Notes: generated by a model from the sequence alone, not told the origin. A stretch of DNA of 64,000 nt from Anaerolineae bacterium (GCA_034437215.1 DAOTVC010000106.1:30369-94368); one strand, 5' to 3'; positions 3,269 to 22,693 are shown, numbered from the stretch's first letter. Program-made: numbers and translations.

Positions 3269-3447
3269 GAGATTTCCTCCTTATGGAAATAAACGGGTTA
3301 CGACTCATCTATGATGATAGAGGTGGGTCGCAGAAAAGTCAACCTGAAGTTTTCTTGTCTTCCGCACCTACCGTGCTATCATTGGCTTGATCGCTATACC
3401 GCCATCGATGGGGCAGAAGACCTGCCCATCTTTTGAGGAGACTGCTG

Positions 3448-6400: not shown

Positions 6401-9396
6401 CCCTCAACGTCACCACCGGCGGTGATGGGAGCGCTGAGGCGGTGGTGACACCCCCCAGGGGGGGCTCCCACGTGCTGATCGCCCAGACGACGGACGAGGA
6501 CGGGCGCCCGGTACGCACAGAGGTTGCTCTCTGGGTGAGCGGTCCCGATGCGGCTGCCTGGCAGATGGCGCAGGGCGAAATCACGCCGGTGGCGGATGTC
6601 CAGACCTACCGTCCGGGCGATACCGCCTCCATCCTGCTGCCTACGCCCTTCGAGGCGCCCTTTGAGGTGCTCATGACGCTGGAGCGGGGCGGCATTCTCG
6701 AGGTCCGGCAGTTCGAGGCCACCGAGGCTAACCCTATCGTGGAACTTCCCATCACGGCCCGGCACGCTCCGAATATCTACGTCTCTTTTGTAGTGGTCAA
6801 GGGGGCCGTAGGGGAGGAGGGCGGGACGCCCGACGTACGCGTGGGGATGCTGGAGCTGACGGTGGAGCCCGTGGCGCAGACCCTGCAGGTGGAGCTCACT
6901 GCCGATCAGAGCCGCGCCTATCTCCCCGGGGAGGACGTGACCCTTACTGTGCGCACCGTCGACTCCGCCGGTAGAACGGTGGATGCTGAGGTGGGGCTGG
7001 CGGTGGTGGACAAGGCCGTGTTGGCCCTTCAGGAGCCCAATGCACCTGCGATCCTCGACGGCTTCTACAATGAACGTCCCCTGGGCGTGGTCATGGGCGA
7101 TTCCCTGCTCGTCTCTCTGGATCGGATTGCGGAGGAGCTCGAGCAGGATGCCGAGCGGATGGCGGCGGAGCTCTCCATGGGCGGTATCGGTGGCGGTGGC
7201 GGTGGGGACGGTATGGCGATGCTCGGAGAGATCCGGAAGGAGTTCCCCGATACGGCTCTCTGGCGTGCGCAGGTGCGCACCGGTCCCACCGGCGAGACTC
7301 AAGTGACCTTCGAGCTGCCTGACTCGCTGACGACCTGGGTGGCCGATGCCCGGGCCGTGACCGCCGACACGAAGGTGGGCAGCGAGACGCTGGAGTTCGT
7401 CGTCGCCAAGCCGCTCCTTATCCGTCCGGTGACCCCCCGGTTCTTCGTCGCAGGAGATCGACCGGAGGTGGCGGCCGTCGTCCACAACAACACCGGGGAG
7501 GAACTCGACGTGACGGTCTCCCTGGAGGCCCTGGGGGGCGCCGTGGCAGAAGAGTCCGCACAGGTGGTGACGGTGCCCGCCGGGGGCAGGACCCGGGTGA
7601 CCTGGTCCCTTGCCGTCCCGACGGCCGCGACGGGCGAGGTACTGTTGAACTTCTCCGTCGCAGGGGGTGGGTACGAGGACGCCACCCGTCCGACCCTGGG
7701 GCAGCCGCCCGAACAGGCGTTGCCCGTCTACCGTTTCGAGATCCCCGACGTCATGGGGGTGAGCGGGGTGCTGGACGAGGCCGGGAGCCGCATCGAGGCC
7801 ATCGTCGTCCCCCCCGAAGCGGGACCCGACACCGAGCTCCACGTGCGCCTCGAGCCCTCACTCGCCGCCGGTCTGCTCTCGGAACTGACCTACGTCCAGA
7901 ACGCGTCGTACAACACCACCGAGCAGATCGTCAGCCGCTTCCTGCCGAACGTGCTCACCTACGGGGCGCTGCAGAGCCTCGGTGTGGAGAACGTCGCGCT
8001 CGAGGAGAAGTTGGAGCTCGTCGTACGCGACGGGCTGGACCGCCTCTACGGACGCCAGAACGAGGATGGAGGTTGGGGGTGGTGGAGCAACAGCGAGAGC
8101 GATCCTCAGATCAGCGCCTACGTCGCATTGGGGCTGTTGCGGGCGCAGCAAGCCGGCTTCACCGTTCGAGAGGAGGCGCTGGAGCAGACGCTGGCCTATC
8201 TCGTGGAGGTGCTGCGCGCCGAGCTGCAGCGGGAGCCGCGGGCGTGGGCCCAGGAGCACGCCATGGCGCTCTACGTCTTGACCATCGCTGAGGAGACCTG
8301 GCCCAGCGGCGCGGCCGGAGCCCTCTACGCGGCTCGAAATGACCTGGAAGTCACGGGACGGGCCTATCTGGCGCTGGCTTTTGGATTGGCCGACGACACT
8401 GACCGCCGTACGGTGACGTTGCTCGAGGATCTCCGGGCGGAGGCGGAGGTCACCGCTTCGGGCGCTCATTGGGCGGATGCCGATGCGCGTCGTTGGACCA
8501 CCGACGTGCGGGCGACGGCGGTGGTGCTCGATGCGCTGGTGAACCTGGCCCCGGACGACCCTCTCGTGCCCCAGGCGGTTCGCTGGCTGATGACGGCTCG
8601 TCGAGCCGACCGCCGTACGTCGACGCAGGAGGTCGTCTGGACGCTCATCGCGCTCACCGACTTTATGGCGCAGACGGGGGAGTTGGACGCCGACTACGTC
8701 TGGGGGGTGGGGCTGAACGGCGCCGAACTGGGCGAGGGACAGATTACATCCCGGGAGGTCACGGAGGTGGCGGAGTTCGAGGTGCGCCTCGCGGACAATC
8801 CGGCCGGGGGCTTGGTGCGCAGCGTCACGAATGGCCTGGAAGTGTCGCGCGGCGAGGGCGCCGGGCGTCTCTACTACCGCGCCGACCTCTCTCTCTACCG
8901 CTCCGTGGAGGGCGTGGAGGCCGAGAGCCGGGGGATCATCGTCGAACGCAGCTACTGTGCTGTCGGCGGAGGGGCAGGAGAGAGCGAGGAGTGCCGGCCC
9001 ATCTCCATGGCGAGTGCAGGAGATCTGGTAGAGGTACGGCTGACCCTGACCCTTCCGGAGATGCGCCACTACCTGGTCCTTGAGGATCGGTACCCGGCAG
9101 GGATGGAGCCCGTGGATCCGACGCTGCTGACGGAGCAACAGGATCAGCCGGCGCCCGGCATGTTCGAGGTCGCTTCCACGCGTTGGTGGTGGGACCCCTT
9201 CGATCACCGCGAACTGCGGGATGAAAGGGCGCTCTTCTTTGCCCAGGAGCTGGCGGCGGGTACTTATCAGGTCCGCTATCGCCTGCGGGCTGCCATTCCC
9301 GGTGAATACCGTGTCCTGCCCGCCAGGGCCTCGGAGATGTACTTCCCGGAGGTCTGGGGGAGGACGGGCGGTGCTCTCTTCAGCGTGCAACCCTAG
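3448..9396 (+). CDS. Alpha-2-macroglobulin family lipoprotein (MG domains, YfaS-like). The thioester CxEQ motif is absent.
   Basis: About 1,980 aa. Lipoprotein signal with LVFQAC lipobox. Repeated MG-like beta-sandwich segments. GGWGWW and ...ASYNTTEQIV... stand where a CLEQ thioester would normally be. GAGGAG RBS 8 nt upstream of the ATG at 3448; the track start at 3433 is a TTG. Confidence 0.7.
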   Translation: MKRNTLRSQVWMLALVFLLVFQACTQIRSPLETATPEGEAQDGLMPDLDLPPAVVEFTPRPGQELAPDDVVVKVRFDQDMDRESVEDALSFSPPLEGEVSWQNERTLAFRPQGLAAASRYHVSLSPEAQSAEGRALGQPLAFTFSTVGPLQVTRVSPEAGADDVRVDAPLFIAFNRPVVPVNCTGAVAGKIDECPALSLSFTPPINGEGFWINTSLYRFTPRLGWDAGRVYRVQLASGISSIVGATMDDSYTWSFSAALPRILDVQPSFKEEDVPLETGVVVTFNTPMDPEATGSAFSLVSEAGAPVPGGLTWRDNGAVLVFTPTQQLDLGTRYLLRLGERARALTGAPIEASLDSSFTTVPYPAPVSIVPADDTSGVPLYDSVRVAFAGAISPTTVLPHVVVTPSVAQNDLYTYWSGNILNLSWDKEPRTEYCVRIAPGIQDRYGNETTSSLAACFTTGDLPPVFAPATGGNAATLDAAQPAELYVVSRNLTRVSLSLLSMSERAFIGSQEIAGEEVRGWTESLAGEPNEARISPLVLTRQGGPLPTGYYGLRWSAPQDGGWRQDLRIAVVDRHVTLKVATEEALVWVTDLQSGEPVAGAEVRLLDEQGTLIAGATTDSQGIARTPIEARKNLWDRVAAVVGRPGEEGFGVALTGWNANVTPWEFGIDVDYGGKTPYYLYLYSDRPIYRPGQTVHVRGILREEADVRYSLPDLQQSVEVRLRDVDWNVVTTNTVTLSEIGGFDTAFELSQGAAVGLYAVEALVPGVERVWQLPFAVAAYRKPEFEVSITPERDDVLQGETLRAVVDARYYFGGPVSNARVAWTVRAAPSVFDPPVEGWWSWGPSGGRVLSHEPIARGEKTTDGEGRVLLEIPAELVEPENGEPPSSQEWEIEVTVTDESGFPVSNRAPVTVHATRFYLGLQPREWVVRAGEKTSVDLMALDWQGAPVSNQEVEVTLAQREWYRERSAEPFSSPRWAYTDTIVSTLNVTTGGDGSAEAVVTPPRGGSHVLIAQTTDEDGRPVRTEVALWVSGPDAAAWQMAQGEITPVADVQTYRPGDTASILLPTPFEAPFEVLMTLERGGILEVRQFEATEANPIVELPITARHAPNIYVSFVVVKGAVGEEGGTPDVRVGMLELTVEPVAQTLQVELTADQSRAYLPGEDVTLTVRTVDSAGRTVDAEVGLAVVDKAVLALQEPNAPAILDGFYNERPLGVVMGDSLLVSLDRIAEELEQDAERMAAELSMGGIGGGGGGDGMAMLGEIRKEFPDTALWRAQVRTGPTGETQVTFELPDSLTTWVADARAVTADTKVGSETLEFVVAKPLLIRPVTPRFFVAGDRPEVAAVVHNNTGEELDVTVSLEALGGAVAEESAQVVTVPAGGRTRVTWSLAVPTAATGEVLLNFSVAGGGYEDATRPTLGQPPEQALPVYRFEIPDVMGVSGVLDEAGSRIEAIVVPPEAGPDTELHVRLEPSLAAGLLSELTYVQNASYNTTEQIVSRFLPNVLTYGALQSLGVENVALEEKLELVVRDGLDRLYGRQNEDGGWGWWSNSESDPQISAYVALGLLRAQQAGFTVREEALEQTLAYLVEVLRAELQREPRAWAQEHAMALYVLTIAEETWPSGAAGALYAARNDLEVTGRAYLALAFGLADDTDRRTVTLLEDLRAEAEVTASGAHWADADARRWTTDVRATAVVLDALVNLAPDDPLVPQAVRWLMTARRADRRTSTQEVVWTLIALTDFMAQTGELDADYVWGVGLNGAELGEGQITSREVTEVAEFEVRLADNPAGGLVRSVTNGLEVSRGEGAGRLYYRADLSLYRSVEGVEAESRGIIVERSYCAVGGGAGESEECRPISMASAGDLVEVRLTLTLPEMRHYLVLEDRYPAGMEPVDPTLLTEQQDQPAPGMFEVASTRWWWDPFDHRELRDERALFFAQELAAGTYQVRYRLRAAIPGEYRVLPARASEMYFPEVWGRTGGALFSVQP

Positions 9397-10115: not shown

Positions 10116-11237
10116 TCAGTACTCCGCTTCGGGACGGACCATGCCCTCCATGTCCACGCTCACCTGCTCCGAGAGGTTCTCGAGACTGTCGAAGAGGAGC
10201 TGGAGCACGTACCGGGCGTTGTGGGTGTAGGATCCGGGGTCTTCGTGCTCGTAGTGGTAGTTATAGGCAGCCTTGACCAGGCGCGGGGTCCAGCTCTGGT
10301 AGCGGTTGGGGAAGGCGGCCTCGCCCTCGTCGACCTCCCCGTTGCCGTTGGTGTCGGTGAAGAAGTAGGGGAAGGAGTCGGCGTAGATGATGGGGGTGCC
10401 GATCACCTCCGCGGCGTAGGTCTGGATGGCGGTGTAGAGCGCCTCGTGAAGGGTCTCGATCTCCTGGGCGATGCCCTCCTCGGCGTTGCCGTCACCGTCG
10501 TAGTCCACTCCGGGCTCTTCGCGGATCTCCGCCAGGTCACCGTAATTGACCACGTTGGAGTGACAGGCAGCGCAGGCGTCGGGATCGAGCGCCGTGCTGT
10601 GGGGATCGTGGCACTCGATGCAGGTATCGTACTGCTCGGTGTGGGGGTAGCGCCCCACGTACTCTCGACCCTCGTACTGGTAACCGACCTGCACCCGATC
10701 ACCCATCAGCGTAGCGGCGGCGATGGCGTAGTGCACGTTGATGAAGCCCAGTTCTTCGGAGACCGTGTCGAGCGGGAAGCCGGCGACGGCCTCGTTGACG
10801 CCTTGCGTCGACTGGCGCCCCTGGTGGCAGTCCATGCAGACCGCCGACTCCGTCAGCCCCTCGACCTCCACGCCGGAGGGGAAGACGACCGTGGTCTTCT
10901 CGTCGGCGGCCTCGTTGTGGCAGGTGAGGCAGGAGACGACGGAGCCCACCCGGGCGGCTTCATCCACCACACCGGCCGCCGTGCCATCGGCGCCCACGTA
11001 GTCGAGGTAACCGTAAAGACTGTGGCACTTGGCACAGTTGGTGGGAATTTCGGGCGGCTCGTCCTCGTCCCAATGGACGAAGGATTCGGAATCCCAATCT
11101 GAGTGCCCGGCCCGGTTCCACTTGGCGGTCACCGCTTCTACCGGTTCGCTGCGTAAGGTGAACCAGTAGAGGCCCCCGATGATGAGCATGCCGATCATGA
11201 TGCCGATAAGGATGAGGGGTAAAAGTTTGAGGTTCAT
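10116..11237 (-). CDS. Membrane-anchored pentaheme c-type cytochrome
   Basis: Five CxxCH motifs: CAKCH, CLTCH, CMDCH, CIECH, CAACH. N-terminal TM anchor MNLKLLPLILIGIMIGMLIIGGLYWF. Confidence 0.75.
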   Translation of the reverse strand: MNLKLLPLILIGIMIGMLIIGGLYWFTLRSEPVEAVTAKWNRAGHSDWDSESFVHWDEDEPPEIPTNCAKCHSLYGYLDYVGADGTAAGVVDEAARVGSVVSCLTCHNEAADEKTTVVFPSGVEVEGLTESAVCMDCHQGRQSTQGVNEAVAGFPLDTVSEELGFINVHYAIAAATLMGDRVQVGYQYEGREYVGRYPHTEQYDTCIECHDPHSTALDPDACAACHSNVVNYGDLAEIREEPGVDYDGDGNAEEGIAQEIETLHEALYTAIQTYAAEVIGTPIIYADSFPYFFTDTNGNGEVDEGEAAFPNRYQSWTPRLVKAAYNYHYEHEDPGSYTHNARYVLQLLFDSLENLSEQVSVDMEGMVRPEAEY

Positions 11238-11368: not shown

Positions 11369-11397
11369 TTGACAGGGTCGGCACCTCTATGTATAAT
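11369..11397 (+). promoter_or_regulatory. Consensus sigma70 promoter: TTGACA, 17 bp spacer, TATAAT
   Basis: Read directly: ttgacagggtcggcacctctatgtataat, about 65 nt upstream of the 11461 start, in the divergent region shared with the cytochrome gene. Confidence 0.5.
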
Positions 11398-11460
11398 TTT
11401 TATAACGAAAACGTGTTTAATCACAGACACGTCCTCGCAATTCACGAAGGAGGGTTTTGG

Positions 11461-12795
11461 ATGAAGTCTCGACACAAGGCTGTATTCTGGATCGTTGTCT
11501 ATATGTTTTTGGTGCTCTCGCCCTTTATCATTCTCTTCCTGGCTCCTCGCCCGCCGGGTCGGGAGTTTCTCAGGGAACTGGGTGTGGCCTTCGGCTTCGT
11601 AGGTATCTCGTTGATGGGTATCCAGTTCATTCCCACAGCGCGGCTCCCCTTCCTCGCCGATCTCTTTCCCATGGATACGCTCTACGAGTTTCACCATAAA
11701 CTCTCGTTGTTGGCTTTTGGCTTCACGTTGGCGCATCCGCTGTTGCTGTTGCTCAACAACGTGTACGTCATCAATCTTTTTAATCTCTTTACCGCCCCGG
11801 CTCGGGCCCAGGCCGGCGTCCTGGCTGTGCTGGCACTCATCGTCCTGGTCTTGACCTCGGCGCGGCGTGTGAGTCTCGGACTGGACTACGATGTGTGGCA
11901 TATCTTGCACTTCCTGCTCACCTTGGTCATTATCGGTTTCGGACTCTATCACATGCTCGCCGTCAACTACTATACCTCCGTGCCGGCCCAGCGGGTCCTG
12001 TGGCTCCTGATGGGCGTGTTGTGGGTGGGCATGATCCTCTATACCCGGGTGGTGCACCCCATCATCCTGCTCCGGCGGCCCTACGAGGTCGTGGAGGTCA
12101 CCGAAGAGCGGGCGAATTCTTGGTCCATCCTGCTGGCGCCCCGCGGGCATTCCGGCTTCGAGTTCCGGGCAGGGCAGGTGGCGTGGCTCAAGTTCTGGCG
12201 ATCGCCCTTCTCCCCCCTGGATCATCCCTTCTCCATTGCCACGAGTGAGGAGCGTCAGGAGCACGTCGGATTCCTGATCAAGGAGCTGGGGGACCTCACC
12301 TCCCGGATGGGGGAGTTGGAGGTAGGGCAGACGGTCTACGTTGACGGGCCCTACGGGACCTTTGATCTCGAAGACTGGCGAGATTCCCCCAACGTCTACA
12401 TCGCGGGCGGGATTGGGCTCGCGCCTATCGCCAGCATGTTGCGCACCCTGGCCGACCGGAAAGATGAGCGACCGTTGATTCTCTTCTACGGGAACCCTAC
12501 CTGGGAATCGGTCATCCTGCGGGAGGAGATTGAGGCGCTCCAGGAGCAGCTGAATATGAAGGTCGTGCACATTCTGGAGCGACCGCCGGAGGGATGGGAG
12601 GGAGAAACCGGTTTCATCCGCGAGGAGATTCTGGAGCGCCACATTGATTTCGATTGTAGCGAGTGTAGCTTCTTTGCCTGCGGTCCCCTGCCCATGTTGG
12701 ATGCGGTGGTGGACGCGCTGGAGTCCATGGACGTGCCCGGGGAGCGCTTCAATCGCATGCGCCAGCTCCACATGGAAGAGTACGAGATGGCCTAA
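11461..12795 (+). CDS. NOX/ferric-reductase-like flavocytochrome: a six-TM bis-heme ferric reductase domain fused to an FAD/NAD(P)-binding FNR-like domain
   Basis: His pairs in TM helices (FHHKLS..AHP; WHILHF..YHMLA). HPFSI FAD motif. GGIGLAPI NAD(P) motif. AGGAGG RBS before the MKSRHK start; the track start at 11389 is probably too long. Confidence 0.7.
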   Translation: MKSRHKAVFWIVVYMFLVLSPFIILFLAPRPPGREFLRELGVAFGFVGISLMGIQFIPTARLPFLADLFPMDTLYEFHHKLSLLAFGFTLAHPLLLLLNNVYVINLFNLFTAPARAQAGVLAVLALIVLVLTSARRVSLGLDYDVWHILHFLLTLVIIGFGLYHMLAVNYYTSVPAQRVLWLLMGVLWVGMILYTRVVHPIILLRRPYEVVEVTEERANSWSILLAPRGHSGFEFRAGQVAWLKFWRSPFSPLDHPFSIATSEERQEHVGFLIKELGDLTSRMGELEVGQTVYVDGPYGTFDLEDWRDSPNVYIAGGIGLAPIASMLRTLADRKDERPLILFYGNPTWESVILREEIEALQEQLNMKVVHILERPPEGWEGETGFIREEILERHIDFDCSECSFFACGPLPMLDAVVDALESMDVPGERFNRMRQLHMEEYEMA

Positions 12796-12921: not shown

Positions 12922-13038
12922 TCGGTTGCGCTCAGTGCGAGCGTCCCGAGAGAGCCCTGCGGGTAGAGCTACCTGCGGGGCTCTTCGCTCTTGCTTTCAG
13001 GGAGGTGAGGATGGACGGGCCCGTTGTTCTGGGTGTCA

Positions 13039-13884
13039 ATGCCTGGCCCCGCCGGTGCGAGACCTGCCTCGCAGGGGCGTAGCGAGGAGCGGGCCATCGT
13101 TCACTTCGGCAGGATTGAGCGTGTCGACTACGCTGGGCCTCTCTGGGAGGTGGAGGGCATTCACCCCCGCCTCAAGGTTCACCTGGCGGCCCGCGACCGC
13201 CTCGTCGTGTTGGCTCACGGATCGCCGCCCTACGCCGTCGTCCTGGGTGTGCCCCACCACTCCGCCGTCGGGCACGGGCAGCTCTGCGAGAGGCGTCTCG
13301 ACCGCGAGGGACGGCCCAATCCCCGGGTCTCCGACGAGGCCACGGCCCCCTACGCGTTGGTCGCTTTGGAGGCCCTGCGGCGGGAGGGCGTGCCCGCCCG
13401 GCTCGTGGTCATGGCTCACGCCACCACCCACGATCCTAACAAGCACGCCCGGAGCCCCTACACCTGCGCTCTCTTCGAAGAGCCCGTCGCTCTCCTCTTC
13501 GAGTGCCACGGGTCGGGGCCCCGCCGCGCCCTCCCGCTGGAGCTGAGCGCGGGGAACAATCCCCTCGCCGACCCCCTGCGCTGCGGGCGGGCGCTGGCGG
13601 AGACGTTGGAGCGCCGCTACGCCCTGGGCGTACAGCGGGAACCGGGGACCCGGGAGGCCCTCATCTTCCACCCCGACGGCTCAGAGATGCCGGGCCGGCT
13701 ACAACTCTCGGCGCGCCGCACCCTCTCCCTCGTGGAGGCAGGACGCCTGGGTATCCAGGCCCTGCACCTCGAGGCCAAGCCGCGCTTCCGCACCCCCCGC
13801 GGCAGCGAGTTGGGCCTGACGCCGGAGGGGCGCTTTCTCGGTCAGGCCATCGCCCGTGCCCTCGTGCGGTATCTTGATGGATAA
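13039..13884 (+). CDS. Hypothetical protein, possibly a zinc-hydrolase-like fold; function unknown
   Basis: High-GC3 frame, preferred over the overlapping 12926..13546 frame. His-rich motifs HGSPPY, GVPHHS, HATTHD, ECHGSG. The start is ambiguous: ATG 13039 or TTG 13024. Confidence 0.35.
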   Translation: MPGPAGARPASQGRSEERAIVHFGRIERVDYAGPLWEVEGIHPRLKVHLAARDRLVVLAHGSPPYAVVLGVPHHSAVGHGQLCERRLDREGRPNPRVSDEATAPYALVALEALRREGVPARLVVMAHATTHDPNKHARSPYTCALFEEPVALLFECHGSGPRRALPLELSAGNNPLADPLRCGRALAETLERRYALGVQREPGTREALIFHPDGSEMPGRLQLSARRTLSLVEAGRLGIQALHLEAKPRFRTPRGSELGLTPEGRFLGQAIARALVRYLDG

Positions 13885-13937: not shown

Positions 13938-13966
13938 TTCAACAAATTGGCTTCCCGCGTTATAAT
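13938..13966 (+). promoter_or_regulatory. Sigma70-like promoter (TTCAAC, 17 bp spacer, TATAAT) for the ccm operon
   Basis: Read directly: ttcaacaaattggcttcccgcgttataat, about 30 nt upstream of ccmE. The -10 lies in the loop of a CCCGC/GCGGG inverted repeat. Confidence 0.4.
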
Positions 13967-13994
13967 AGGCGGGTTGCGCCTGAGAAGGAGGGTT

Positions 13995-14480
13995 ATGCGA
14001 AACAAGGGCACGTTCATGGTCGCCGGTCTGCTCGTCGTCGTCGCCGTCGTCTACCTGATGGTGACGAGCACCGGCAGCACCGCCCGCTACTTCCTCACCA
14101 TCGAGGAGCTGCAGGCGTTGGGGTCGGAGGCGCAGGAGCGGCAGGTGACCGTCTCCGGCGCCGTCCTGGGGGAGAGCATCGACTATGACGCCTCCCGGCC
14201 TCACCTGACCTTCACCATCGTCCAGGTCCCCGCCGATCCCCGGGAGGTGGAGGCGGCGGGCGGCCTCGCCACCGTTTTGCGGGAGGCGGTCAACGATCCC
14301 GACGCCCCCCGGCTGCGGGTGGTCTACGAGGGCATCCGGCCCGAGGCGCTGCAGCACGAGCGCCAGGCCATCGTGCGCGGGCGGCTGACGGAGGAGGGGG
14401 CCTTCCTCGCCGAGGAGCTCCTGCTCAAGTGCCCTTCGCGCTACGAGGCGGCGCCCGCGGAGGGCGAGCCGGGCGGATGA
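13995..14480 (+). CDS. ccmE: Cytochrome c maturation heme chaperone CcmE, CxxxY variant
   Basis: N-terminal TM then an OB-fold-like domain. C-terminal LLLKCPSRYE places Cys where the heme-binding His of canonical HxxxY CcmE sits. GAAGGAGGG RBS. Stop overlaps the ccmF start in an ATGA. Confidence 0.55.
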   Translation: MRNKGTFMVAGLLVVVAVVYLMVTSTGSTARYFLTIEELQALGSEAQERQVTVSGAVLGESIDYDASRPHLTFTIVQVPADPREVEAAGGLATVLREAVNDPDAPRLRVVYEGIRPEALQHERQAIVRGRLTEEGAFLAEELLLKCPSRYEAAPAEGEPGG

Positions 14481-16945
14481 CGGGCGAGGTCGGGACGCTG
14501 CTCGTCGGGCTGGGATTGCTCTCGGCCCTCTACACCGCCGGCGCGACCCTGGTGGGGCTCCACCGGGAGGACGAGCGGTGGCTCGCCAGCGGCAGGAATG
14601 CCGTCGTGGCGACCTCCGTCCTGCTGGGCGGCGCCCTGCTTGCCCTGCTGGTTGCCTTCCTCACCGGCAACTTCTCCCTCGCCTACGTTGCCGACCACGG
14701 CTCCCGCGCCCTGCCCCTCTACCTCAAGGTCTCGGCCCTTTGGGCCGGGCAGGAGGGCTCTCTCCTGCTCTGGAGCTGGATGCAGGCCCTCTTCGCGGTG
14801 CTCACCCTCCATCTCTCGGGGCGCAAGGCCCTGCCTCTCCTGCCCTGGGTGACCGTCTTCCTCGCGCTCATCACGGCCTTCTTCACCGGCGTGACGCTGC
14901 TGACCTCCAACCCCTTCGTGCTTCGGACTCCCGTCCCGCCCGACGGGTTGGGTTTGAACCCCCTGTTGCGTCATCCGGGCATGATCCTGCACCCGCCGGC
15001 GCTCTACGTCGGCTACGTCGGCCTCGCCGTCCCCTTCGCCTTCGCCCTGGCGGCCCTCGTGCGCGGGCGGCTGGCGGCGTGGACGAGGGCCGCGCGCGGC
15101 TGGATCCTCGTCGCCTGGCTGGGGCTGAGCCTGGGCCTGCTGCTGGGGATGCGCTGGGCTTACGACGTCCTGGGGTGGGGCGGCTACTGGGGCTGGGATC
15201 CCGTGGAGAACGCGGGGCTCATGCCCTGGTTCACCGCCACGGCCCTCCTGCACGGTCTCGTCATGCAGGGGGAGCGCCGGGGCTTCCGCCTCTGGAACCT
15301 GCTCCTGGCGATCTTCTCCTTCGCCCTCGTCCTCTTCGGGACCTTCGCCACGCGGAGCGGCGTCATCCAGTCGGTGCACGCCTACGCCCGCTCCGACGTC
15401 GGAACCTACTACGCCGGGGCCATCGTCGTCACCCTCCTCCTCTCCGCCGCCCTGCTGGTCTGGCGCCGGGGTCATCTCCAGGCCGATGGCGAGGGCGAGG
15501 GGCTGCTCTCGCGCGAGGGGCTCTTCTTCCTCACCTTCTTGCTCTTCGTGACGCTCACCGTCTCCGTCTTCGTGGGGAGCACGCTGCCCACGCTCACCGA
15601 GCTCTTCGGCGGGCAGCGCTTCGAGGCAGGGCCGGCGTGGTTCGACCGGGTGACGGGTCCCCAGTTCGCCCTGCTCGTGCTCCTGCTGGGGATCTGTCCG
15701 CTGCTGGGGCGCTCCGCCGCCCTGCTGCGCGCCCGGCGCGGGTGGCGCTGGTCGATCCCGGCGGGGGCGCTTCTCGCCGTGGTGCTGGCGATCTTTGCCG
15801 GTTTCACCCGGCCCCTCTCCCTGATCGGCTTCGGGATCGTGGGGCTGGCGGGGACGACGGCCCTCGTCGAGATCGGCGCGGGCGTCGCTGCCCGTGCCCG
15901 CCGCACCGAGGACGCCCCCCTCAACGCCCTCTGGCACCTCCTGCGCACCCAGCGGCGCAGGTACGGCGGCTACCTCGTCCACCTGGGCGTCGTGCTCATG
16001 GCTCTGGGCGTCATCGGCACGCGCCTCTACGCCCTGGAGGAGGACGTGGTCCTCACCTCGGGCGTCGGTCGGCTGGTGGGCGGCTACACCTTCGTCTACC
16101 AGGAGCTGCGCCAGGAGACGGCACCGGATCGGACTACCCTCTGGGCCGAGGTGGACGTGCGGGAGGCGGGTGACTACCGGGCTACCCTGACGCCCCGCCT
16201 GATTCGCTACACGGGCTACCGGGAGTCCGTGGCCGTCCCCGCCGTGCGCACGGGGTTGCGAGAGGATCTCTACCTCGTCCTCTCCAGCTGGGACGAGGGC
16301 GGGAGGACGGTGACCCTCAGCGTGACTGTCAATCCGCTGATCAATTTTCTCTGGCTGGGAGGACTGCTCTTGATAGCCGGTGGCGCCTTCGCCCTCTGGC
16401 CCCGCACTACCCGCTGGGAGGGCCTGGTCGCCGGGGTGCTGCTCCTCCTCCTCATCGGCGCCGGCTGGGCGATGTGGGGGGCGCCCCACGGGAACCTCCG
16501 GCGGGTCAACCCGCGGCCCACCGTGGGGGAGCCCGCGCCCGACTTCCGCCTCCGGCTCCTCGACGGCACGACCTTCTCCCTCGCCGAGCAGCGGGGGGAG
16601 GTGGTCGTTGTCAATCTCTGGACCTCCTGGTGCGAGCCCTGCCGGGAGGAGCTGCCCGATCTGCAGGCGCTCTGGGAGGTCTACGGGGAGCGGGGCGTCC
16701 GCTTCGTCGGCGTGGCCCACCAGGACGAGCCGGAGGGGGTGCGGGATGCCGTCGCCGACTACGGGCTCACCTATCCCGTGGGCCTCGACGAGGGGCAGCG
16801 GATCGCTGACGCCTACGGGATCACGGGTGTGCCCGAGACCTTCGTCGTCGCCCCCGACGGGCGCGTGGCCTACGTTCACGTCGGCCCGGTGACGGCGGAG
16901 GTGCTGGCGGCAGAGCTGGATGCACTTCTGGAGGAGGCCCCATGA
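14477..16945 (+). CDS. ccmF: CcmF heme lyase fused to a C-terminal TlpA/ResA/CcmG-like thioredoxin domain
   Basis: WWD motif GWGGYWGWDPVENAG and many TM helices over about 650 aa. The C-terminal roughly 170 aa carries a WCEPC thioredoxin motif (VNLWTSWCEPCREELPDLQ). Confidence 0.75.
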   Translation: MTGEVGTLLVGLGLLSALYTAGATLVGLHREDERWLASGRNAVVATSVLLGGALLALLVAFLTGNFSLAYVADHGSRALPLYLKVSALWAGQEGSLLLWSWMQALFAVLTLHLSGRKALPLLPWVTVFLALITAFFTGVTLLTSNPFVLRTPVPPDGLGLNPLLRHPGMILHPPALYVGYVGLAVPFAFALAALVRGRLAAWTRAARGWILVAWLGLSLGLLLGMRWAYDVLGWGGYWGWDPVENAGLMPWFTATALLHGLVMQGERRGFRLWNLLLAIFSFALVLFGTFATRSGVIQSVHAYARSDVGTYYAGAIVVTLLLSAALLVWRRGHLQADGEGEGLLSREGLFFLTFLLFVTLTVSVFVGSTLPTLTELFGGQRFEAGPAWFDRVTGPQFALLVLLLGICPLLGRSAALLRARRGWRWSIPAGALLAVVLAIFAGFTRPLSLIGFGIVGLAGTTALVEIGAGVAARARRTEDAPLNALWHLLRTQRRRYGGYLVHLGVVLMALGVIGTRLYALEEDVVLTSGVGRLVGGYTFVYQELRQETAPDRTTLWAEVDVREAGDYRATLTPRLIRYTGYRESVAVPAVRTGLREDLYLVLSSWDEGGRTVTLSVTVNPLINFLWLGGLLLIAGGAFALWPRTTRWEGLVAGVLLLLLIGAGWAMWGAPHGNLRRVNPRPTVGEPAPDFRLRLLDGTTFSLAEQRGEVVVVNLWTSWCEPCREELPDLQALWEVYGERGVRFVGVAHQDEPEGVRDAVADYGLTYPVGLDEGQRIADAYGITGVPETFVVAPDGRVAYVHVGPVTAEVLAAELDALLEEAP

Positions 16946-17196
16946 GTCTGGCCGCGTTGTTGGTGGGTTTGGGGTTGGTGGTGCTCTGGGGTGTCTACGT
17001 CACCCGCCCCTTCCGCCGTCCCTCGTTGGATGAGCAGATCGAGGTCTGGGTGGCGGAGGTTGACGTGCAGGCTCGCGCCGTGCCCCAGGAGGAGGCGCCC
17101 ACGGTCAGCGCCTGCCCTGCCTGCGGTCGCCCCCTCCGCGAGGACTACAGCTTCTGCCCCGGCTGTGGTACACCTTTGAGGGAGGAGGCGTCATGA
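16942..17196 (+). CDS. Small membrane protein with a C-terminal zinc ribbon (CPACG...CPGCG)
   Basis: Translationally coupled by ATGA overlap with ccmF upstream and the 17193 gene downstream. One TM helix, then a CxxC...CxxC ribbon. Confidence 0.5.
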   Translation: MSLAALLVGLGLVVLWGVYVTRPFRRPSLDEQIEVWVAEVDVQARAVPQEEAPTVSACPACGRPLREDYSFCPGCGTPLREEAS

Positions 17197-18020
17197 GGCT
17201 GCGCGCTCTCCTTGTATGCGCCTTAATAGCCCTGTTGCTCCTGACCGGCACGGCGCGCGCACAGGCGCCGGTCACCATCGAACAGGCCCACCTCTTCATC
17301 CGCTTCGCGGAAGATCGGCTGGAGGTGCAGGAGTTTCACTTGCTGAGCAACGCCGGCGAGGAGCCCTACACGGGTGGGGTGGACCCCGACCTGGGCGTGC
17401 CCATCACGGCTCTCTTTGAGCTGCCGCCCGGCGCCGCGGACCTGAGGTTCGCCGACCCGGCGGCGGGGGAGCGTTTTGTCCTCGCACCGGAGGGCTTTGC
17501 CGATACCCTCCCCATCCCCCCCGGCGAGTCCACGGCCGAGGTGCGCTTCACCTACGCGCTCCCTTACCGTCCCGGCGAGCCCTTCTCCCGCACCTTTTCC
17601 CTGCCGGTGGGGGCCGTCGTCGTCGTGCTCCCCGCCGGGGAGCTGGAGCCGGTGGGCGAGGTACTTGCCTATCAGGGGGAGATGCCCGGTGAGGGGCTGA
17701 ACGTCGACGTCTACGTCGCCGGATCGCTGGCGGCGGGGGAGGCGCTGACCCTCTCCCTCGTCCCCCCGGAAGCGGTGACGCCTGCTCGTCCCCCCGCCGA
17801 GGTGGGGCTGGGCGCGGCGCTCCTGGGGCTCTGCCTGCTGGCGTCCCTCTGGCTCTGGCTCTGGCGTCCCTCTCCGACCGCACCCCCCGAGTCGGTCCGG
17901 CCCCTCCTGGCGGAGGTGGCGGCGCTGGATGCCCGCTTCGAGGCGGGGGCGCTGGCGGAGGAGGTCTACCGGCGGGAGCGGGCGGCGCTGAAGGCGGAGG
18001 TGCGCTCCCGGTGCCTCTGA
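17193..18020 (+). CDS. Secreted or membrane-anchored hypothetical protein embedded in the ccm operon
   Basis: Signal peptide MRLRALLVCALIALLLLTGTARAQA. C-terminal TM followed by a charged helical tail. ATGA-coupled to its neighbours. No CxxC motif. Confidence 0.5.
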   Translation: MRLRALLVCALIALLLLTGTARAQAPVTIEQAHLFIRFAEDRLEVQEFHLLSNAGEEPYTGGVDPDLGVPITALFELPPGAADLRFADPAAGERFVLAPEGFADTLPIPPGESTAEVRFTYALPYRPGEPFSRTFSLPVGAVVVVLPAGELEPVGEVLAYQGEMPGEGLNVDVYVAGSLAAGEALTLSLVPPEAVTPARPPAEVGLGAALLGLCLLASLWLWLWRPSPTAPPESVRPLLAEVAALDARFEAGALAEEVYRRERAALKAEVRSRCL

Positions 18021-19474
18021 TCCCCTCTCCTGCCCCGCCCGCCATCTGGACCGCCGCCCTCGAGAAGCGCTTCGGCCCCACCGTGGCCCTCGACGGCGTG
18101 GACCTGGTGGTGGAGCCGGGGGAGTTCGTCGTCCTCGTAGGCCCCAACGGCGCGGGCAAGACGACACTGCTGCGCACCCTGGCGACCCTGGCCCGCCCCA
18201 CCTCGGGCGAGCTGCGCATCGCCGGTCTCGACCCCGCGGCGGCGGGACGCGCCATCCGCCGGCGCATCGGCTTTCTCTCCCACCGCACCCTGCTCTACGA
18301 GGAGCTGAGCGCCGGGGAGAACCTGGCCCTCTACGCCCGCCTCTACCGCTTGGAGGAGCCCGCCGCCCGCATCGACGAGCTCCTCGACCGCGTCGACCTC
18401 GACTGGCGGCGCAACGACCTCGTCCGAACCCTCTCCCGGGGCATGCAGCAGCGCCTTGCGGTGGCCCGCGCGGTGCTCCACCGCCCCTCCCTCCTCCTCC
18501 TGGACGAGCCCTACACCGGCCTCGATCCCCTGGCGGCGGAGGCGCTGACGGCGCTGCTGGGCGAGCTCGCCGGGGGGGGGAGCACGGTGCTGCTGACTAC
18601 CCACACGCTGGAGGGGCTGGGAGCGGCAGGGCGGCGGGTGGTCGTTCTCAACCGGGGGCGGATCGTCCACGACGGGGTGGTGGCGGAGTGGGGCGCCTTC
18701 CCCGGGCTCTACCGCCGCCTGGTGCTGGAAGAGGCGGAGGTGGTAGCGTCGATCGCTCTGGGCGAGGAGCGACCGCCTGAGGGCCGGGTAGACGAGGAGC
18801 GGGGTGGAACGCTGGCCGCCGTGTTCGCCATCGTGCGCAAGGACTTGGCGGCGGAGCTCCACACGCGGGAGATGGTCAACGCCATGTTCGTCTTCGCCGT
18901 CCTGACGCTCCTCATCTTCAGCTTCGCCCTCGACCTGCGGGGTGCCACCGCCCGGGCGGCGGCGCCGGGCGTCCTCTGGACGGCCGTGGCCTTCGCCGGG
19001 ACGCTGGGGCTGAGCCGCTCGCTGGCCCGCGAGGAGCAGAGCGGCGCCATCGAGGGGCTGCTCCTGGCCCCCGTTGACCGGGTGACCCTCTTCTTCGGCA
19101 AGGCGCTGGGCAACCTGCTCCTGATGCTCTTCGTCGAGGGGGTGCTCCTGCTGCTGGGCAGCGTCCTCTTCGACGTTCCCCTCCTGCAGCCGGCGGTGCT
19201 CCTGGTGATGGTGCTGGGCACGGTGGGCTACGCCGCCGTGGGGACCCTGCTGGCGGCCATGGCGGTCAACACCCGGGCACGGGAGGTGCTGCTGCCCATC
19301 CTGCTCCTGCCCCTGGCGATCCCGCTCTTCATCGGTGCGGTGCGCGCCACGGGCGGACTGCTGGAGGGGCTGGGGCTGGCGGAGGTCAACCCGTGGCTGC
19401 GCCTCGTCGTGGTCTACGACCTGCTGATGGTCGCCGTCTCCATGGTGACCTTCGAGTACGTGATTGCCGAGTGA
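18011..19474 (+). CDS. ccmAB: CcmA-CcmB fusion: heme exporter ABC ATPase fused to the CcmB permease
   Basis: N-terminal Walker A GPNGAGKTT, signature LSRGMQQRL, Walker B LLLDEP. The C-terminal roughly 220 aa is a multi-TM CcmB-like segment (ILLLPLAIPLFIGAV). GTG start overlaps the upstream stop. Confidence 0.65.
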   Translation: MPLIPSPAPPAIWTAALEKRFGPTVALDGVDLVVEPGEFVVLVGPNGAGKTTLLRTLATLARPTSGELRIAGLDPAAAGRAIRRRIGFLSHRTLLYEELSAGENLALYARLYRLEEPAARIDELLDRVDLDWRRNDLVRTLSRGMQQRLAVARAVLHRPSLLLLDEPYTGLDPLAAEALTALLGELAGGGSTVLLTTHTLEGLGAAGRRVVVLNRGRIVHDGVVAEWGAFPGLYRRLVLEEAEVVASIALGEERPPEGRVDEERGGTLAAVFAIVRKDLAAELHTREMVNAMFVFAVLTLLIFSFALDLRGATARAAAPGVLWTAVAFAGTLGLSRSLAREEQSGAIEGLLLAPVDRVTLFFGKALGNLLLMLFVEGVLLLLGSVLFDVPLLQPAVLLVMVLGTVGYAAVGTLLAAMAVNTRAREVLLPILLLPLAIPLFIGAVRATGGLLEGLGLAEVNPWLRLVVVYDLLMVAVSMVTFEYVIAE

Positions 19475-19483
19475 GGAATTAGA

Positions 19484-20170
19484 ATGAAAAACGAGAGAGG
19501 GTTCGGGCCCGTCCTCATCGCCCTGGCGGCGGTCGCCTTTCTGGCGGCCCTGGGCATGGTCTTCTACTACGCGCCCCGCGAGGCGACGATGGGGGAGGTG
19601 CAGCGCATCTTCTACTTCCACGTGGCCTCGGCGTGGGTGGGCTTCTTCGGCTTCTTCGTCACCTTCGTGGGGAGCGCGGGCTACCTCCTGAGCGGGCGGC
19701 GCCCGTGGGACGTCCTGGCTCTCTCCTCGGCAGAGGTGGGGCTAGTCTTCATCACCATGACGCTGCTCACCGGCATGCTCTGGGCGCGCCCCGTCTGGGG
19801 CACCTACTGGACCTGGGAGCCGCGCCTGACCATCTCGGCGGTGCAGTGGCTCATCTACGTGGCCTACGTCATGGTGCGGGGTTCCGTGGAGAGCCGGGAG
19901 CGGAGCGCGCGCTTCGCCGCCGTCTACGGCATCGCCGCCTTCGTCACCGTCCCCCTCTCCTGGTTCGCCATACGCTGGTGGCGGACCATCCACCCGCAGA
20001 TCATCGGCGGCGGGGAGATGGCCCTCACCCCGCAGATGCTCCACACCCTCTTCGCCTCCATCGGCGCCTTCACCCTCCTCTACGCCGCCTTCCTCCTCTA
20101 CCGCGTGCGCCTGGAGCGCGCCCGGGACCGCTTGGCGGCGCTGCGGGGGCGGCGGGGTCGTCGGGGATGA
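19484..20170 (+). CDS. ccmC: Heme exporter protein CcmC
   Basis: Trp-rich WWD motif WGTYWTWEPRLT. Multi-TM. Confidence 0.75.
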   Translation: MKNERGFGPVLIALAAVAFLAALGMVFYYAPREATMGEVQRIFYFHVASAWVGFFGFFVTFVGSAGYLLSGRRPWDVLALSSAEVGLVFITMTLLTGMLWARPVWGTYWTWEPRLTISAVQWLIYVAYVMVRGSVESRERSARFAAVYGIAAFVTVPLSWFAIRWWRTIHPQIIGGGEMALTPQMLHTLFASIGAFTLLYAAFLLYRVRLERARDRLAALRGRRGRRG

Positions 20171-20209: not shown

Positions 20210-20353
20210 CCCTTTCTACTTCCCGATTACTATGTCCTGCCAACACTGGCGCCGAGCGGGTTTAATGACGGGGTCGGAGTGATATACCATGACGCTATTG
20301 CACTCCCTGATCCCTCTTCTCTCTTCCCTGATCCCTATCTTTTAGGAGGTTCC

Positions 20354-20494
20354 ATGCCCAGCTATCTGATCGCCGCTTACGCTATCTTCGTTGCCGTGCC
20401 GCTGCTGCTGGCCCTCTCCCTCTACCTGCGCCACCGCCAGGTGGAGCGCGCCGTCCGGGACCTGCGGCAGGCGGAGCGGGAGGGGCGCGGATAG
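20354..20494 (+). CDS. ccmD: Putative heme exporter protein CcmD (46 aa, single TM)
   Basis: MPSYLIAAYAIFVAVPLLLALSLYLRHRQ... followed by a basic tail. TAGGAGG RBS 5 nt upstream. Position after ccmC matches the usual ccm order. Below the track length cutoff. Confidence 0.4.
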   Translation: MPSYLIAAYAIFVAVPLLLALSLYLRHRQVERAVRDLRQAEREGRG

Positions 20495-20893: not shown

Positions 20894-22693
20894 TTGGGGG
20901 AGGGACCTCAAGACGTGAACTGGGAGTATAATCTGGCTCTGATCCTGCTCGTCGTCGCGGCGGGCATCGCTACGCTGTTGGCCCTTTTTACCCGGCGGCG
21001 ACCGGCACCGGGAGCGCGAAAGTTTGCCCTGTTGATGCTCATGTTGGACGGCTGGTACGTGGGGCTGGCGCTCCAGATAGCAGGGGGCAGTCTCCTGATC
21101 AAGTATCTGGGGCTGCGCATTGAGTACACTGTCACCTTCTTCATCGGCGTGCTCTGGCTGGCCTTTGTCTTGAGTTACACCGGCTCCTCCGATTGGCTGA
21201 CGCGTCCCCGAGCCGCCGCTCTCTGTGCCATCCCGGCCCTGAGCACACTCCTCCTCTGGACCAACGGCCAGCACCATCTCCTTCTGCAGGACGTCCATCT
21301 ACCGTCCCCTGCTCCCTTTGTGCCCCTGGAGTGGACGCCGGGTCCCTTGCTCTGGATCGGTCAGCTCTACGTCTATCTCCTGATGGCGAGCGGAGCGGTC
21401 CTTTTGGGACGCCAGATCCTGCGCCTTCCCCAGATCTACGTAGGGCAGATTGCGGCGCTGCTGGTGGGCCTGGCAGTTCTGGTGGTGACGAGCCTCCTCT
21501 ATCTGTTCGAGATTGTCCCCTCCCACGTCCCACTGGGGGCCTATGCCCTGCTCGCCGCCGCGCTCTCCACCGCTTTCGGTCTCTTCCGGTGGCAGCTGCT
21601 GGATCTGGTTCCCGTCGCCCGCGACGTGGTCGTCGACGAGCTGGCGGACGGGGTGCTCGTCTTGGATCGGCAGCGGCGTCTCGTCGACGTCAACCTGGCC
21701 GCCGAGCGCTGGCTGGGTAGCCCCGCTGACGAAGTGGTCGGCAAGGATCTGGCGCGAGTTGCGCCCCTCCTGGCGGAGGGCCTCTTCCCGCTCCTCACCG
21801 GGGAAGCGGGGGCCGATCCCTTCCTGCAGGAGGTGCAGAGGGAGGGGCGCGTCTATACGCTCCGAGTGAGCCCGCTCTACGGACGTGATGGGCAGCCGAC
21901 CGGTTGGGTGCTGGTGCTGCACGACGTGACGGACCTGCGAACCGCTCTGCTCCAGGCGGAGGCAGCAGCCGAGGCCCAGTCGCGCTTCGTCAGCAACGTG
22001 AGCCACGAGCTGCGTACGCCGTTGACCAACATCACCCTCTACCTCGCGCTTCTGGAGCGGGGCAAGCCGGAGCGCCACGCCTTCTACATGGATACCCTCC
22101 ACCGGGAGACGGAGCGCCTGAAGTTTCTCATCGAGGGGCTGCTGCGCCTCTCCCGGCTCGATCTGCAGGAGGTCACTCCGCAGCCGTGCCTCCTGGACGT
22201 CAACGTCCTGGTCGAGACCCTGGCGCAGGATCGCCGACCTCTCTTTGCCGAGCACGAACTGGAGCTCGGTACGCAGCTGGAGCCCGCGCTCCCCGCCGTG
22301 AGCGCCGATCCCCAGCTGCTCGAGCAGGTCCTCACGAATCTGCTCAGCAACGCGCTCAACTACACGCCTGCCGGGGGGCATGTGTGGGTGCAGACCGACG
22401 AGAGCGCGGAGGAGGGGACGCACTGGGTCACGATCAGCGTTCGGGATACGGGCGTGGGCATCAGCGCCGAGGAGCAGGCCCGGCTCTTCACCCGCTTCTA
22501 CCGGGGCGCAGCCAGCCGCAATCCCGAGACGGCAGCGCCGGGCACGGGGTTGGGCTTGGCCATCTCTCAGGAGATCATGGCCCTGCACGCGGGGCGCATC
22601 ACTGTGGAGAGCGAGGGGGGGGAGGGGAGCACCTTCACCCTCTGGCTGCCCGCCGATGCCAACGGTGCTCCTGATACCCTACGCAACACGTAG
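20894..22693 (+). CDS. Sensor histidine kinase: N-terminal 7TM sensor domain, PAS, HisKA, HATPase_c
   Basis: Multi-TM N-terminus paralogous to those of the HKs at 31991 and 42532. H-box SHELRTPL. HATPase motifs DTGVGI and GTGLGLAI. The start may be the GTG at 20915 rather than the TTG at 20894. Confidence 0.8.
   Translation: MGEGPQDVNWEYNLALILLVVAAGIATLLALFTRRRPAPGARKFALLMLMLDGWYVGLALQIAGGSLLIKYLGLRIEYTVTFFIGVLWLAFVLSYTGSSDWLTRPRAAALCAIPALSTLLLWTNGQHHLLLQDVHLPSPAPFVPLEWTPGPLLWIGQLYVYLLMASGAVLLGRQILRLPQIYVGQIAALLVGLAVLVVTSLLYLFEIVPSHVPLGAYALLAAALSTAFGLFRWQLLDLVPVARDVVVDELADGVLVLDRQRRLVDVNLAAERWLGSPADEVVGKDLARVAPLLAEGLFPLLTGEAGADPFLQEVQREGRVYTLRVSPLYGRDGQPTGWVLVLHDVTDLRTALLQAEAAAEAQSRFVSNVSHELRTPLTNITLYLALLERGKPERHAFYMDTLHRETERLKFLIEGLLRLSRLDLQEVTPQPCLLDVNVLVETLAQDRRPLFAEHELELGTQLEPALPAVSADPQLLEQVLTNLLSNALNYTPAGGHVWVQTDESAEEGTHWVTISVRDTGVGISAEEQARLFTRFYRGAASRNPETAAPGTGLGLAISQEIMALHAGRITVESEGGEGSTFTLWLPADANGAPDTLRNT

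Follow-up and report, generated by a model that had tools for sequence, protein, structure and literature searches.

The 64,000-nucleotide (nt) stretch from an Anaerolineae bacterium that was analyzed here (GCA_034437215.1, DAOTVC010000106.1:30369-94368; the whole stretch is hereafter called the window) contains a compact cytochrome c maturation (ccm) cluster, in which two open reading frames (ORFs), ORF84 and ORF275, lie between a fused ccmF::thioredoxin gene and a fused ccmA::ccmB gene. ORF84 encodes a small bitopic protein of 84 amino acids (aa), and ORF275 encodes a type-I membrane protein of 275 aa. The operon is of the System I* type because its CcmE carries CPSRY, i.e., CxxxY rather than HxxxY. 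Gene context and predicted protein features indicate that the pair very probably belongs to the cytochrome c maturation machinery, where it would be a CcmI-like accessory and not a substitute for CcmH. The more specific proposal, that the pair is a CcmI-like accessory of the CcmF holocytochrome c synthase and thus the functional counterpart of CcmI (CycH), has about an even chance of being correct, and the evidence for this function consists of synteny and weak similarity.

ORF84 (16942-17196) and ORF275 (17193-18020) are real genes that are coupled in translation and belong to the ccm operon, in which all genes are located on the plus strand. The stop codon of ccmF::thioredoxin (TGA, 16943-16945) overlaps the ATG of ORF84 at 16942 to form an ATGA, and the stop codon of ORF84 (TGA, 17194-17196) overlaps the ATG of ORF275 at 17193 in the same way. 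A first-pass annotation of the sequence had described an 84-aa protein with a transmembrane (TM) segment and a zinc ribbon, and a 275-aa signal-peptide protein with a C-terminal TM anchor, coupled by ATGA to core ccm genes on both sides. Both proteins were borne out by translation, Pfam matches, and an AlphaFold model, and the ATGA was confirmed at the ccmF/ORF84 and ORF84/ORF275 junctions. The ORF275/ccmA::ccmB junction is instead a 10-nt overlap between the first start codon of ccmA::ccmB (GTG, 18011) and the stop codon of ORF275 (TGA, 18018-18020), which is still a tight coupling. Strong Shine-Dalgarno sequences of the GGAGG type, read from the sequence, precede the ATG of ORF84 by 4 nt (GGAGGAGG, 16930-16937) and that of ORF275 by 4 nt (GGGAGGAGG, 17180-17188), and a GGAGG was found at 17996-18000, upstream of the ccmA::ccmB GTG. 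Homologues in the same syntenic position shared 87, 77, 44, 35, and 25% identity with ORF275, and 85, 83, and 43% identity and lower with ORF84. The possibility of spurious ORFs in high-GC DNA was ruled out by conservation, synteny, and the Shine-Dalgarno sites. In NCBI records from an Anaerolineales metagenome-assembled genome, ORF275 is named "hypothetical protein" and ORF84 "zinc-ribbon domain-containing protein".

The ccm genes were mapped by tblastn on 31 loci, and precomputed Pfam calls were used for the other loci. The locus sets (2 genome and 26 metagenome loci) had been retrieved with a five-sequence alignment and are biased toward the subfamily of the window. About 16 non-redundant loci, with at least four gene orders, had a small TM gene and a gene of the ORF275 family (hereafter the family gene) immediately after ccmF. 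Near-identical loci included, the pair followed ccmF in the window, L001, L002, L004-L007, L010-L012, L014-L017, L019, L020, L022, and L024, as well as L026-L028 and L033. The order ccmE-ccmF::trx-small-family-ccmA(B)-ccmC-ccmD, where trx is the thioredoxin gene, was shared by the window, L001, L002, L004, L006, and L007. Bellilinea caldifistulae (L005) and the near-identical loci L010-L012 had ccmE-ccmF-ccmH-trx-small-family-ccmA-ccmB-ccmC, a marine metagenome clade (L013-L028) had ccmH-ccmF-small-family-trx, and L017 had ccmE-ccmF-ccmH-small-family-ccmC. In L033, ccmABCDE preceded ccmF, the small gene, and the family gene, which were followed by a diheme cytochrome c gene and cytochrome b genes. 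The synteny of the pair with ccmF was kept down to 25% identity. The recurrence of this link across numerous Chloroflexi-type genomes and under different gene orders therefore indicates that it is under selection and is not an accident of one genome. A link of the pair to ccm genes in related genomes, which the first-pass annotation had anticipated, was thus found at many loci. The pair is not confined to fused ccmF-trx operons, because unfused clusters carry it as well. The ccmF::trx fusion was common to the window, L001, L002, L004, L006, and L007, and outside the window the ccmA::ccmB fusion was found just once, as a 495-aa gene with ABC_tran and CcmB in L001. The L002 and L006 contigs end before the arrangement of ccmA and ccmB can be read, and the ORF list and match spacing suggest that the two are separate genes in L004 and L007. 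In Bellilinea, both ccmF/trx and ccmA/ccmB were unfused.

In the marine clade, the pair was accompanied by ccmF, ccmH, and trx, and no ccmABCDE genes were nearby, which assigns the pair to the synthase/thiol module, where CcmI acts. In L019 (1579-11409), the marine module follows the genes of Alternative Complex III, including Fer4, two NrfD-family genes, ActD, and a cytochrome c, and start and stop coordinates coincide at every junction within the module. The same arrangement was identified in L015, L016, L020, L022, L024, and L026-L028. Judged only from gene order, the module has the appearance of a synthase dedicated to the cytochromes of Alternative Complex III, similar to NrfEFG.

The assignment of ORF84 was based on the ORF translation, the Pfam zinc ribbon, and homologue alignments. 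The protein consists of an N-terminal TM helix (residues 3-21; 16948-17004), seen as a hydrophobic stretch in the translation, a juxtamembrane RPFRR motif, a conserved "QIEVWVAEV" segment, and a C-terminal C4 zinc ribbon (CPAC...CPGC, residues 58-79; 17113-17178). Residues 55-79 matched PF24460 with 31.9 bits and PF13240 with 29.3 bits, above the respective cut-offs of 28.5 and 25. The four cysteines of the ribbon were invariant among the homologues that carry a zinc ribbon (alignments A2 and A6). The position of RPFRR directly after the TM helix and the positive-inside rule suggest that the ribbon is cytoplasmic. In alignment A6, which comprises 13 syntenic small proteins, the modules were arranged in the order of TM helix, (R/Y/Q)PF, amphipathic helix (L..R..I...I.DLE.DF.SGDL.E.DY..QR..L), "IE..V" segment, and zinc ribbon. 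The TM helix and (R/Y/Q)PF were kept in all 13 proteins. The amphipathic helix was lost from the small protein in the clade of the window, and the zinc ribbon was absent from that of the marine clade and of L033. A second, larger protein (309 aa) that ends in a zinc ribbon of the same type was encoded just upstream of ccmE in L017 (L017:3876-4805), which suggests that zinc-ribbon membrane proteins recur around these ccm clusters.

ORF275 was characterized by translation, an AlphaFold model (mean predicted local distance difference test score, pLDDT, 79.6), and a hidden Markov model (HMM) search, and did not belong to any Pfam or NCBIfam family. The protein starts with a signal peptide (residues 1-23; 17193-17261) composed of MRLR, a hydrophobic core modeled as a helix at residues 2-18, and a putative cleavage site between ARA and QA. 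This is followed by a predicted extracytoplasmic beta-sandwich (residues 27-190; 17271-17762; strands with a pLDDT of about 80-92), a TM anchor (residues 203-224; 17799-17864) that was recognized as a helix in the model and in alignment A7 and is followed by WRPSP, and a predicted cytoplasmic helical hairpin with the motif LLAEVAALDARFEAGALAEEVYRRERAALKAEV (residues 236-274; 17898-18014; pLDDT 82-94), which resembles SHOCT and GvpG as well as the cytoplasmic loop of CcmI. Near-invariant residues of the ectodomain were H33, E47, N53, P78, G111, Y121, and Y174, and residues 101-111 formed the motif G-[FI]-A-D-T-x-P-I-P-P-G (alignment A3). H33, E47, N53, Y121, and Y174, together with this motif, would fit a candidate ligand- or peptide-binding site. 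The only cysteines of ORF275 are C9, C213, and C274, so that it contains neither CxxC nor CxxCH, in agreement with the earlier statement that the pair has no CxxC outside the zinc ribbon. No cysteine was conserved in the ORF275 family, and many members had none at all. Anchoring as a lipoprotein was considered for ORF275 and rejected, as the window protein has no lipobox. Neither ORF84 nor ORF275 matched PF03918 (CcmH), and no TPR family of Pfam or NCBIfam was matched by the window proteins or by 33 diverse members of the ORF275 family. The ectodomain in the model of ORF275 is all-beta.

ORF275 belongs to a large unannotated family. Word-indexed protein searches returned 6, 3, and 22 matches, all of which were named "hypothetical" and had no family-specific Pfam domain. 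The six matches were relatives of ORF275, and an exhaustive HMM search with their alignment against cluster representatives at 50% identity detected 4504 representatives at E ≤ 1e-3, 2812 at E ≤ 1e-10, and 660 at E ≤ 1e-30. No Pfam or NCBIfam model covered the ectodomain in the window protein or in the 33 diverse members, and sequence searches of the PDB with the family profile A1 and the C-terminal module A7 gave matches at chance level only. The best 150 representatives showed three architectures. The first is short, like the window protein, and the second measures about 400 aa and has an additional immunoglobulin (Ig)-like domain of the CarboxypepD_reg type at its N-terminus. The third, seen in about 35 of the 150, is a lipoprotein of about 600-660 aa in which two CxxCH cytochrome c domains precede the core. 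These diheme forms carry a LAGC-type lipobox, CcoP/QcrC-like heme domains, and an Ig-like domain ahead of the ORF275-type core (e.g., P0066, P0068, P0071, P0077, P0087, P0127, P0141, and L005:8927-10792). The diheme fusion and the separate diheme gene immediately downstream of the family gene in L033 appear to be the fused and the split version of one arrangement.

The two adjacent genes also resemble each other. Comparison of the C-terminal module of the ORF275 family (A7) with the small-protein alignment (A6) by hhalign gave a match with 96.3% probability and an E-value of 1.5e-9 over 68 columns, and the adjacent genes therefore share one anchor module that consists of a TM segment and a juxtamembrane helix. 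The helix was present in at least one partner at every locus. In the window it was found in ORF275 and not in ORF84, and the reverse was observed in L033. TIGR03142, the model of the CcmI N-terminal part, was the top and often the sole NCBIfam match for five of the 13 small proteins (E 3e-5 to 5e-3, 17-24 bits, model positions 4-86 of 118, with TM2 unmatched). It was also matched by nine of 30 C-terminal modules of the ORF275 family (best E 7e-5). The cytoplasmic loop of E. coli CcmH, taken as a CcmI reference, was short and did not contain the helix motif.

CcmI/CycH corresponds to the C-terminal half of E. coli CcmH, has NrfG as a paralogue, and is the apocytochrome-binding subunit of the CcmFHI synthase. 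Its periplasmic TPR domain binds apocytochrome c. No other component of System I is understood so poorly, and many lineages are reported to lack it. In the mechanism proposed here, the single-pass proteins ORF84 and ORF275 would pair with each other via their shared TM/juxtamembrane-helix module, and the paired proteins would dock on CcmF in the way the membrane part of CcmI docks on CcmF/H. The beta-sandwich of ORF275, on the outer face of the membrane, may then bind or position unfolded apocytochrome c or holo-CcmE at the active site of CcmF, and would thereby replace the TPR domain of canonical CcmI. Thiol reduction would be left to the thioredoxin domain fused to CcmF, and the pair itself would not perform redox chemistry because it has no extracytoplasmic cysteine. 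The zinc ribbon of ORF84 is probably a lineage-specific add-on outside the core mechanism, dispensable in some clades, as neither the marine clade nor L033 has it. A wider reading would make the pair a previously unrecognized and widespread synthase accessory, in which a new beta-sandwich replaces the CcmI TPR domain and a CcmI-like TM-helix anchor has been duplicated, and which would occur in Chloroflexota-type bacteria (monoderm, System I*) and in some other bacteria, with at least 660 representatives at E ≤ 1e-30. This reading is somewhat less probable than its opposite. In the diheme-fused forms, the accessory could additionally feed electrons to the heme/thiol chemistry at CcmF.

Several observations weigh against a CcmI-like role. 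The pair has no TPR domain and carries a beta-sandwich ectodomain instead, and CcmI is a single chain with the topology TM1-loop-TM2-TPR, whereas the pair distributes an ectodomain-TM-helix and a TM-helix over two chains. All TIGR03142 matches fell below the curated cut-off of 29.3 bits, ORF84 and ORF275 themselves did not match this model at E ≤ 1, and the helix of the ORF275 family also matched the generic models GvpG (19 of 33 members) and SHOCT (11 of 33). One zinc-ribbon/family pair (L038) had no ccm neighbors on its 5.7-kb contig. Furthermore, a paralogous high-scoring subfamily of 420-442 aa (P0159, P0160, P0161, and P0165) was located outside ccm clusters (L032:201-2829, L034:6270-8170, L035:1583-3901, and L039:1286-4128). 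Its genes always followed that of an unrelated 181-aa TM protein without a Pfam match, and their neighbors included DUF2933, DUF2085, thioredoxin, extracytoplasmic function (ECF) sigma/anti-sigma, SHOCT, and multicopper-oxidase genes. Finally, the two CxxCH domains in about 35 of the 150 top relatives could mean that the family comprises electron-transfer proteins and not maturation factors.

The last point leads to the alternative that the family is a client or electron-transfer part of the Ccm system, namely a membrane-anchored scaffold by which a diheme cytochrome c of the CcoP/QcrC type is held at the outer face of the membrane in monoderm Chloroflexi. The family gene would then lie beside the ccm genes because it encodes a major Ccm substrate, and the 275-aa form of the window would have lost or never had the heme domains. 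The diheme lipoprotein forms are consistent with this, as are the Bellilinea member, which matched Cytochrome_CBB3 twice along with ccoP and QcrC-like models, the diheme cytochrome c and cytochrome b genes after the family gene in L033, and the position of the L019 module after the genes of Alternative Complex III. Nevertheless, it is unlikely. About 115 of the 150 members have no heme motif and yet keep the ectodomain and the synteny with ccmF, the window protein being one without CxxCH. The tight overlaps with ccmF and ccmA, along with a small partner that is always present, point to a stoichiometric subunit of the machinery, and a plain anchor would not need a conserved ectodomain of 165 residues with near-invariant H, E, N, and Y. 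A generic envelope module is a further candidate, in which the pair would be of the SHOCT-type oligomerizing kind, serve in metal or cofactor handling or in transmembrane signaling, and have the ccm cluster as one context of several. The paralogous subfamily with its other partner and no ccm genes nearby, the generic SHOCT and GvpG matches of the C-terminal helix, and the fact that proteins combining a TM segment with a zinc ribbon are common and have many functions all point in this direction. The subfamily of the window, however, keeps its link to ccmF through repeated rearrangements of gene order and down to low identity, and the small partner is specific to this subfamily and has TIGR03142 as its best NCBIfam match. 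This candidate is accordingly rated as quite improbable.

The first-pass annotation had also raised the idea that the pair substitutes for CcmH or CcmI function. Replacement of CcmH would mean that, in a System I* without CcmH, the pair acts as the partner of CcmF in thiol redox chemistry. Consistent with this, no CcmH homologue and no [LIVM]RCxxC motif, LRCxxC included, was found in plausible ORFs of the 64-kb window, and tblastn mapping detected no ccmH in the ccmF::trx clade clusters (L001, L002, L004, L006, and L007). The description of the system as CcmH-less thus stands for the window, which is what it covers. Nevertheless, Bellilinea (E 5e-21), the marine clade (E 2e-32), and L017 encode the pair alongside a genuine CcmH (PF03918), and the pair is therefore not a CcmH substitute. 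ORF275 offers no conserved cysteine for such a role, and the sole CxxC pairs are those of the zinc ribbon, which would be cytoplasmic, i.e., on the wrong side of the membrane, and which are missing in some clades. In addition, System I* is known to work without CcmH (PMC3601427). Bellilinea combines a Cys-type CcmE (CPTRY; L005:4504-5043) with the genuine CcmH (L005:7202-7735). In Chloroflexi, the CcmE variant therefore does not go hand in hand with a lack of CcmH, in agreement with the one third of such bacteria that keep CcmH according to PMC3601427. The CcmH part of the earlier idea is hence highly improbable. A CcmI-like chaperone or adaptor role fits the ccmF/ccmH/trx position, the sub-threshold TIGR03142 matches of the relatives, and the lack of redox cysteines.

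If the wider reading of the pair as a previously unrecognized synthase accessory is true, it would settle, for a single large lineage, the question of whether functions of the missing CcmH and CcmI pass to non-orthologous proteins. The pair is conserved, easily recognized, and placed exactly where CcmI would act, with a new ectodomain and a faintly CcmI-like anchor, and it constitutes a concrete candidate for testing in a compact heterologous ccm operon. It also gives thousands of "hypothetical proteins" from Chloroflexota metagenomes a hypothesis of function and a handle for annotation, and multiheme cytochromes are abundant in many of the organisms concerned. Furthermore, the distribution of the pair corrects the tempting idea that it compensates for the absence of CcmH.

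The other genes of the window cluster, all on the plus strand, were assigned as follows. The ccmE gene (13947-14480; PF03100, E 1.5e-19) encodes a Cys-variant heme chaperone with CPSRY replacing HxxxY. The ccmF::thioredoxin fusion (14429-16945; 838 aa) matched Cytochrom_C_asm, CcmF_C, and Redoxin/AhpC-TSA (residues 699-826) in Pfam and nrfE/CcmF and ResA in NCBIfam, and its thioredoxin domain is of the ResA/DsbE/CcmG type. The ccmA::ccmB fusion (18011-19474; 487 aa) matched ABC_tran and CcmB in Pfam and TIGR01189 (ccmA) with 138.1 bits against a cut-off of 131.6. It is followed by ccmC (19484-20170; TIGR01191, E 4e-36; PF01578) and ccmD (20342-20494; 50 aa; TIGR03141; PF04995 with 25.6 bits, equal to the cut-off). 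A histidine kinase gene (20894-22693, plus strand), with an N-terminal HisKA_7TM sensor, PAS, HisKA, and HATPase_c, is located directly downstream of ccmD, and a candidate ORF of 286 aa without a Pfam match, in high-GC sequence, is located directly upstream of ccmE (13024-13884, plus strand). Directly upstream of the ccm cluster, a divergent gene pair encodes a membrane-anchored pentaheme cytochrome c (10116-11237, minus strand; five CxxCH, with cytochrome c7/c3/MtrC-like matches) and a NOX/ferric-reductase-type protein (11389-12795, plus strand; Ferric_reduct TM, FAD_binding_8, and NAD_binding_1). These two proteins could form a transmembrane electron-export pair. A bacterial alpha-2-macroglobulin of 1987 aa (MG2, bMG3, A2M bait region, TED, and bMG10) with four N-terminal Big_5 Ig-like domains is encoded at 3433-9396 on the plus strand.

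Among known systems, System I* is the immediate context of the pair. It is defined by a Cys-type CcmE with CxxxY in place of HxxxY, for which the consensus is CPSKY. Its hosts include Chloroflexi, and about one third of the bacteria with this variant keep CcmH (PMC3601427). CcmH is not strictly required, and CcmI enhances maturation and is not essential (PMC3601427, a review of 2011 that summarizes Allen et al., 2006 and Goddard et al., 2010 on this system). A study of archaeal Ccm systems in eLife stated that it is unclear whether CcmH and CcmI have been replaced by non-orthologous proteins (2022; PMC9084895). The window agrees with System I* in the CPSRY of its CcmE compared with the CPSKY consensus and in the lack of ccmH in the cluster. 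It differs in the fusions of ccmF to a thioredoxin domain and of ccmA to ccmB, and nothing like the pair is among the components described in PMC3601427 and PMC9084895. No description or model of the pair was found in the open-access literature, Pfam, or NCBIfam.

In structural comparisons, ribophorin I/Ost1 was the best Foldseek match of ORF275 in the PDB (E 1e-6 to 3e-5, 240-300 aligned columns), followed by the N-terminal beta domains of M1 aminopeptidases. The superposition on ribophorin I/Ost1 had a TM-score of about 0.4 (0.5 being the criterion), a root-mean-square deviation of 14-24 Å, and an identity of 13-15%. Both proteins have an extracytoplasmic beta-sandwich, one TM segment, and a cytosolic helical tail, and ribophorin I/Ost1 has an accessory role, as is proposed for the pair, in a polytopic membrane enzyme whose substrates are unfolded polypeptides on the far side of the membrane. 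On the other hand, it belongs to an unrelated kingdom and pathway, the eukaryotic oligosaccharyltransferase, and the match to the predicted structure is treated as a fold resemblance and not as homology. The SHOCT matches (PF09851; counted at E ≤ 1, best E 9e-5) stayed below the 27-bit threshold, with 18.2 bits in the Bellilinea member and no match in the window protein. Those to GvpG (PF05120; best E 2e-5) were also below threshold, with E 0.11 for the window protein. Both are short generic motifs that give no functional assignment to cytochrome maturation.

The dedicated heme lyase NrfEFG, a paralogue of CcmF/H/I, resembles the marine module in that the latter sits beside its presumed client operon, and differs in that NrfG is a TPR protein. 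As for CcmI/CycH itself, differences beyond those of domain and chain number are that the ectodomain of ORF275 lies N-terminal to the TM segment, as in a type-I protein with a cleaved signal peptide, and not after TM2, and that Anaerolineae-type forms of the pair carry an appended zinc ribbon. Because the pair has no TPR domain and its relatives match the N-terminal model below threshold, it is classed as something that probably "works like CcmI" and not as "a CcmI". The likeness extends to the membrane anchoring of both, to genomic association, as both are encoded in or beside ccmF/ccmH/ccmG modules, to the absence of redox cysteines, and to the order of elements, in which a TM segment leads through a juxtamembrane "RP..." stretch to a cytoplasmic amphipathic helix with the pattern L..L..LD....G.L....Y...R..L.

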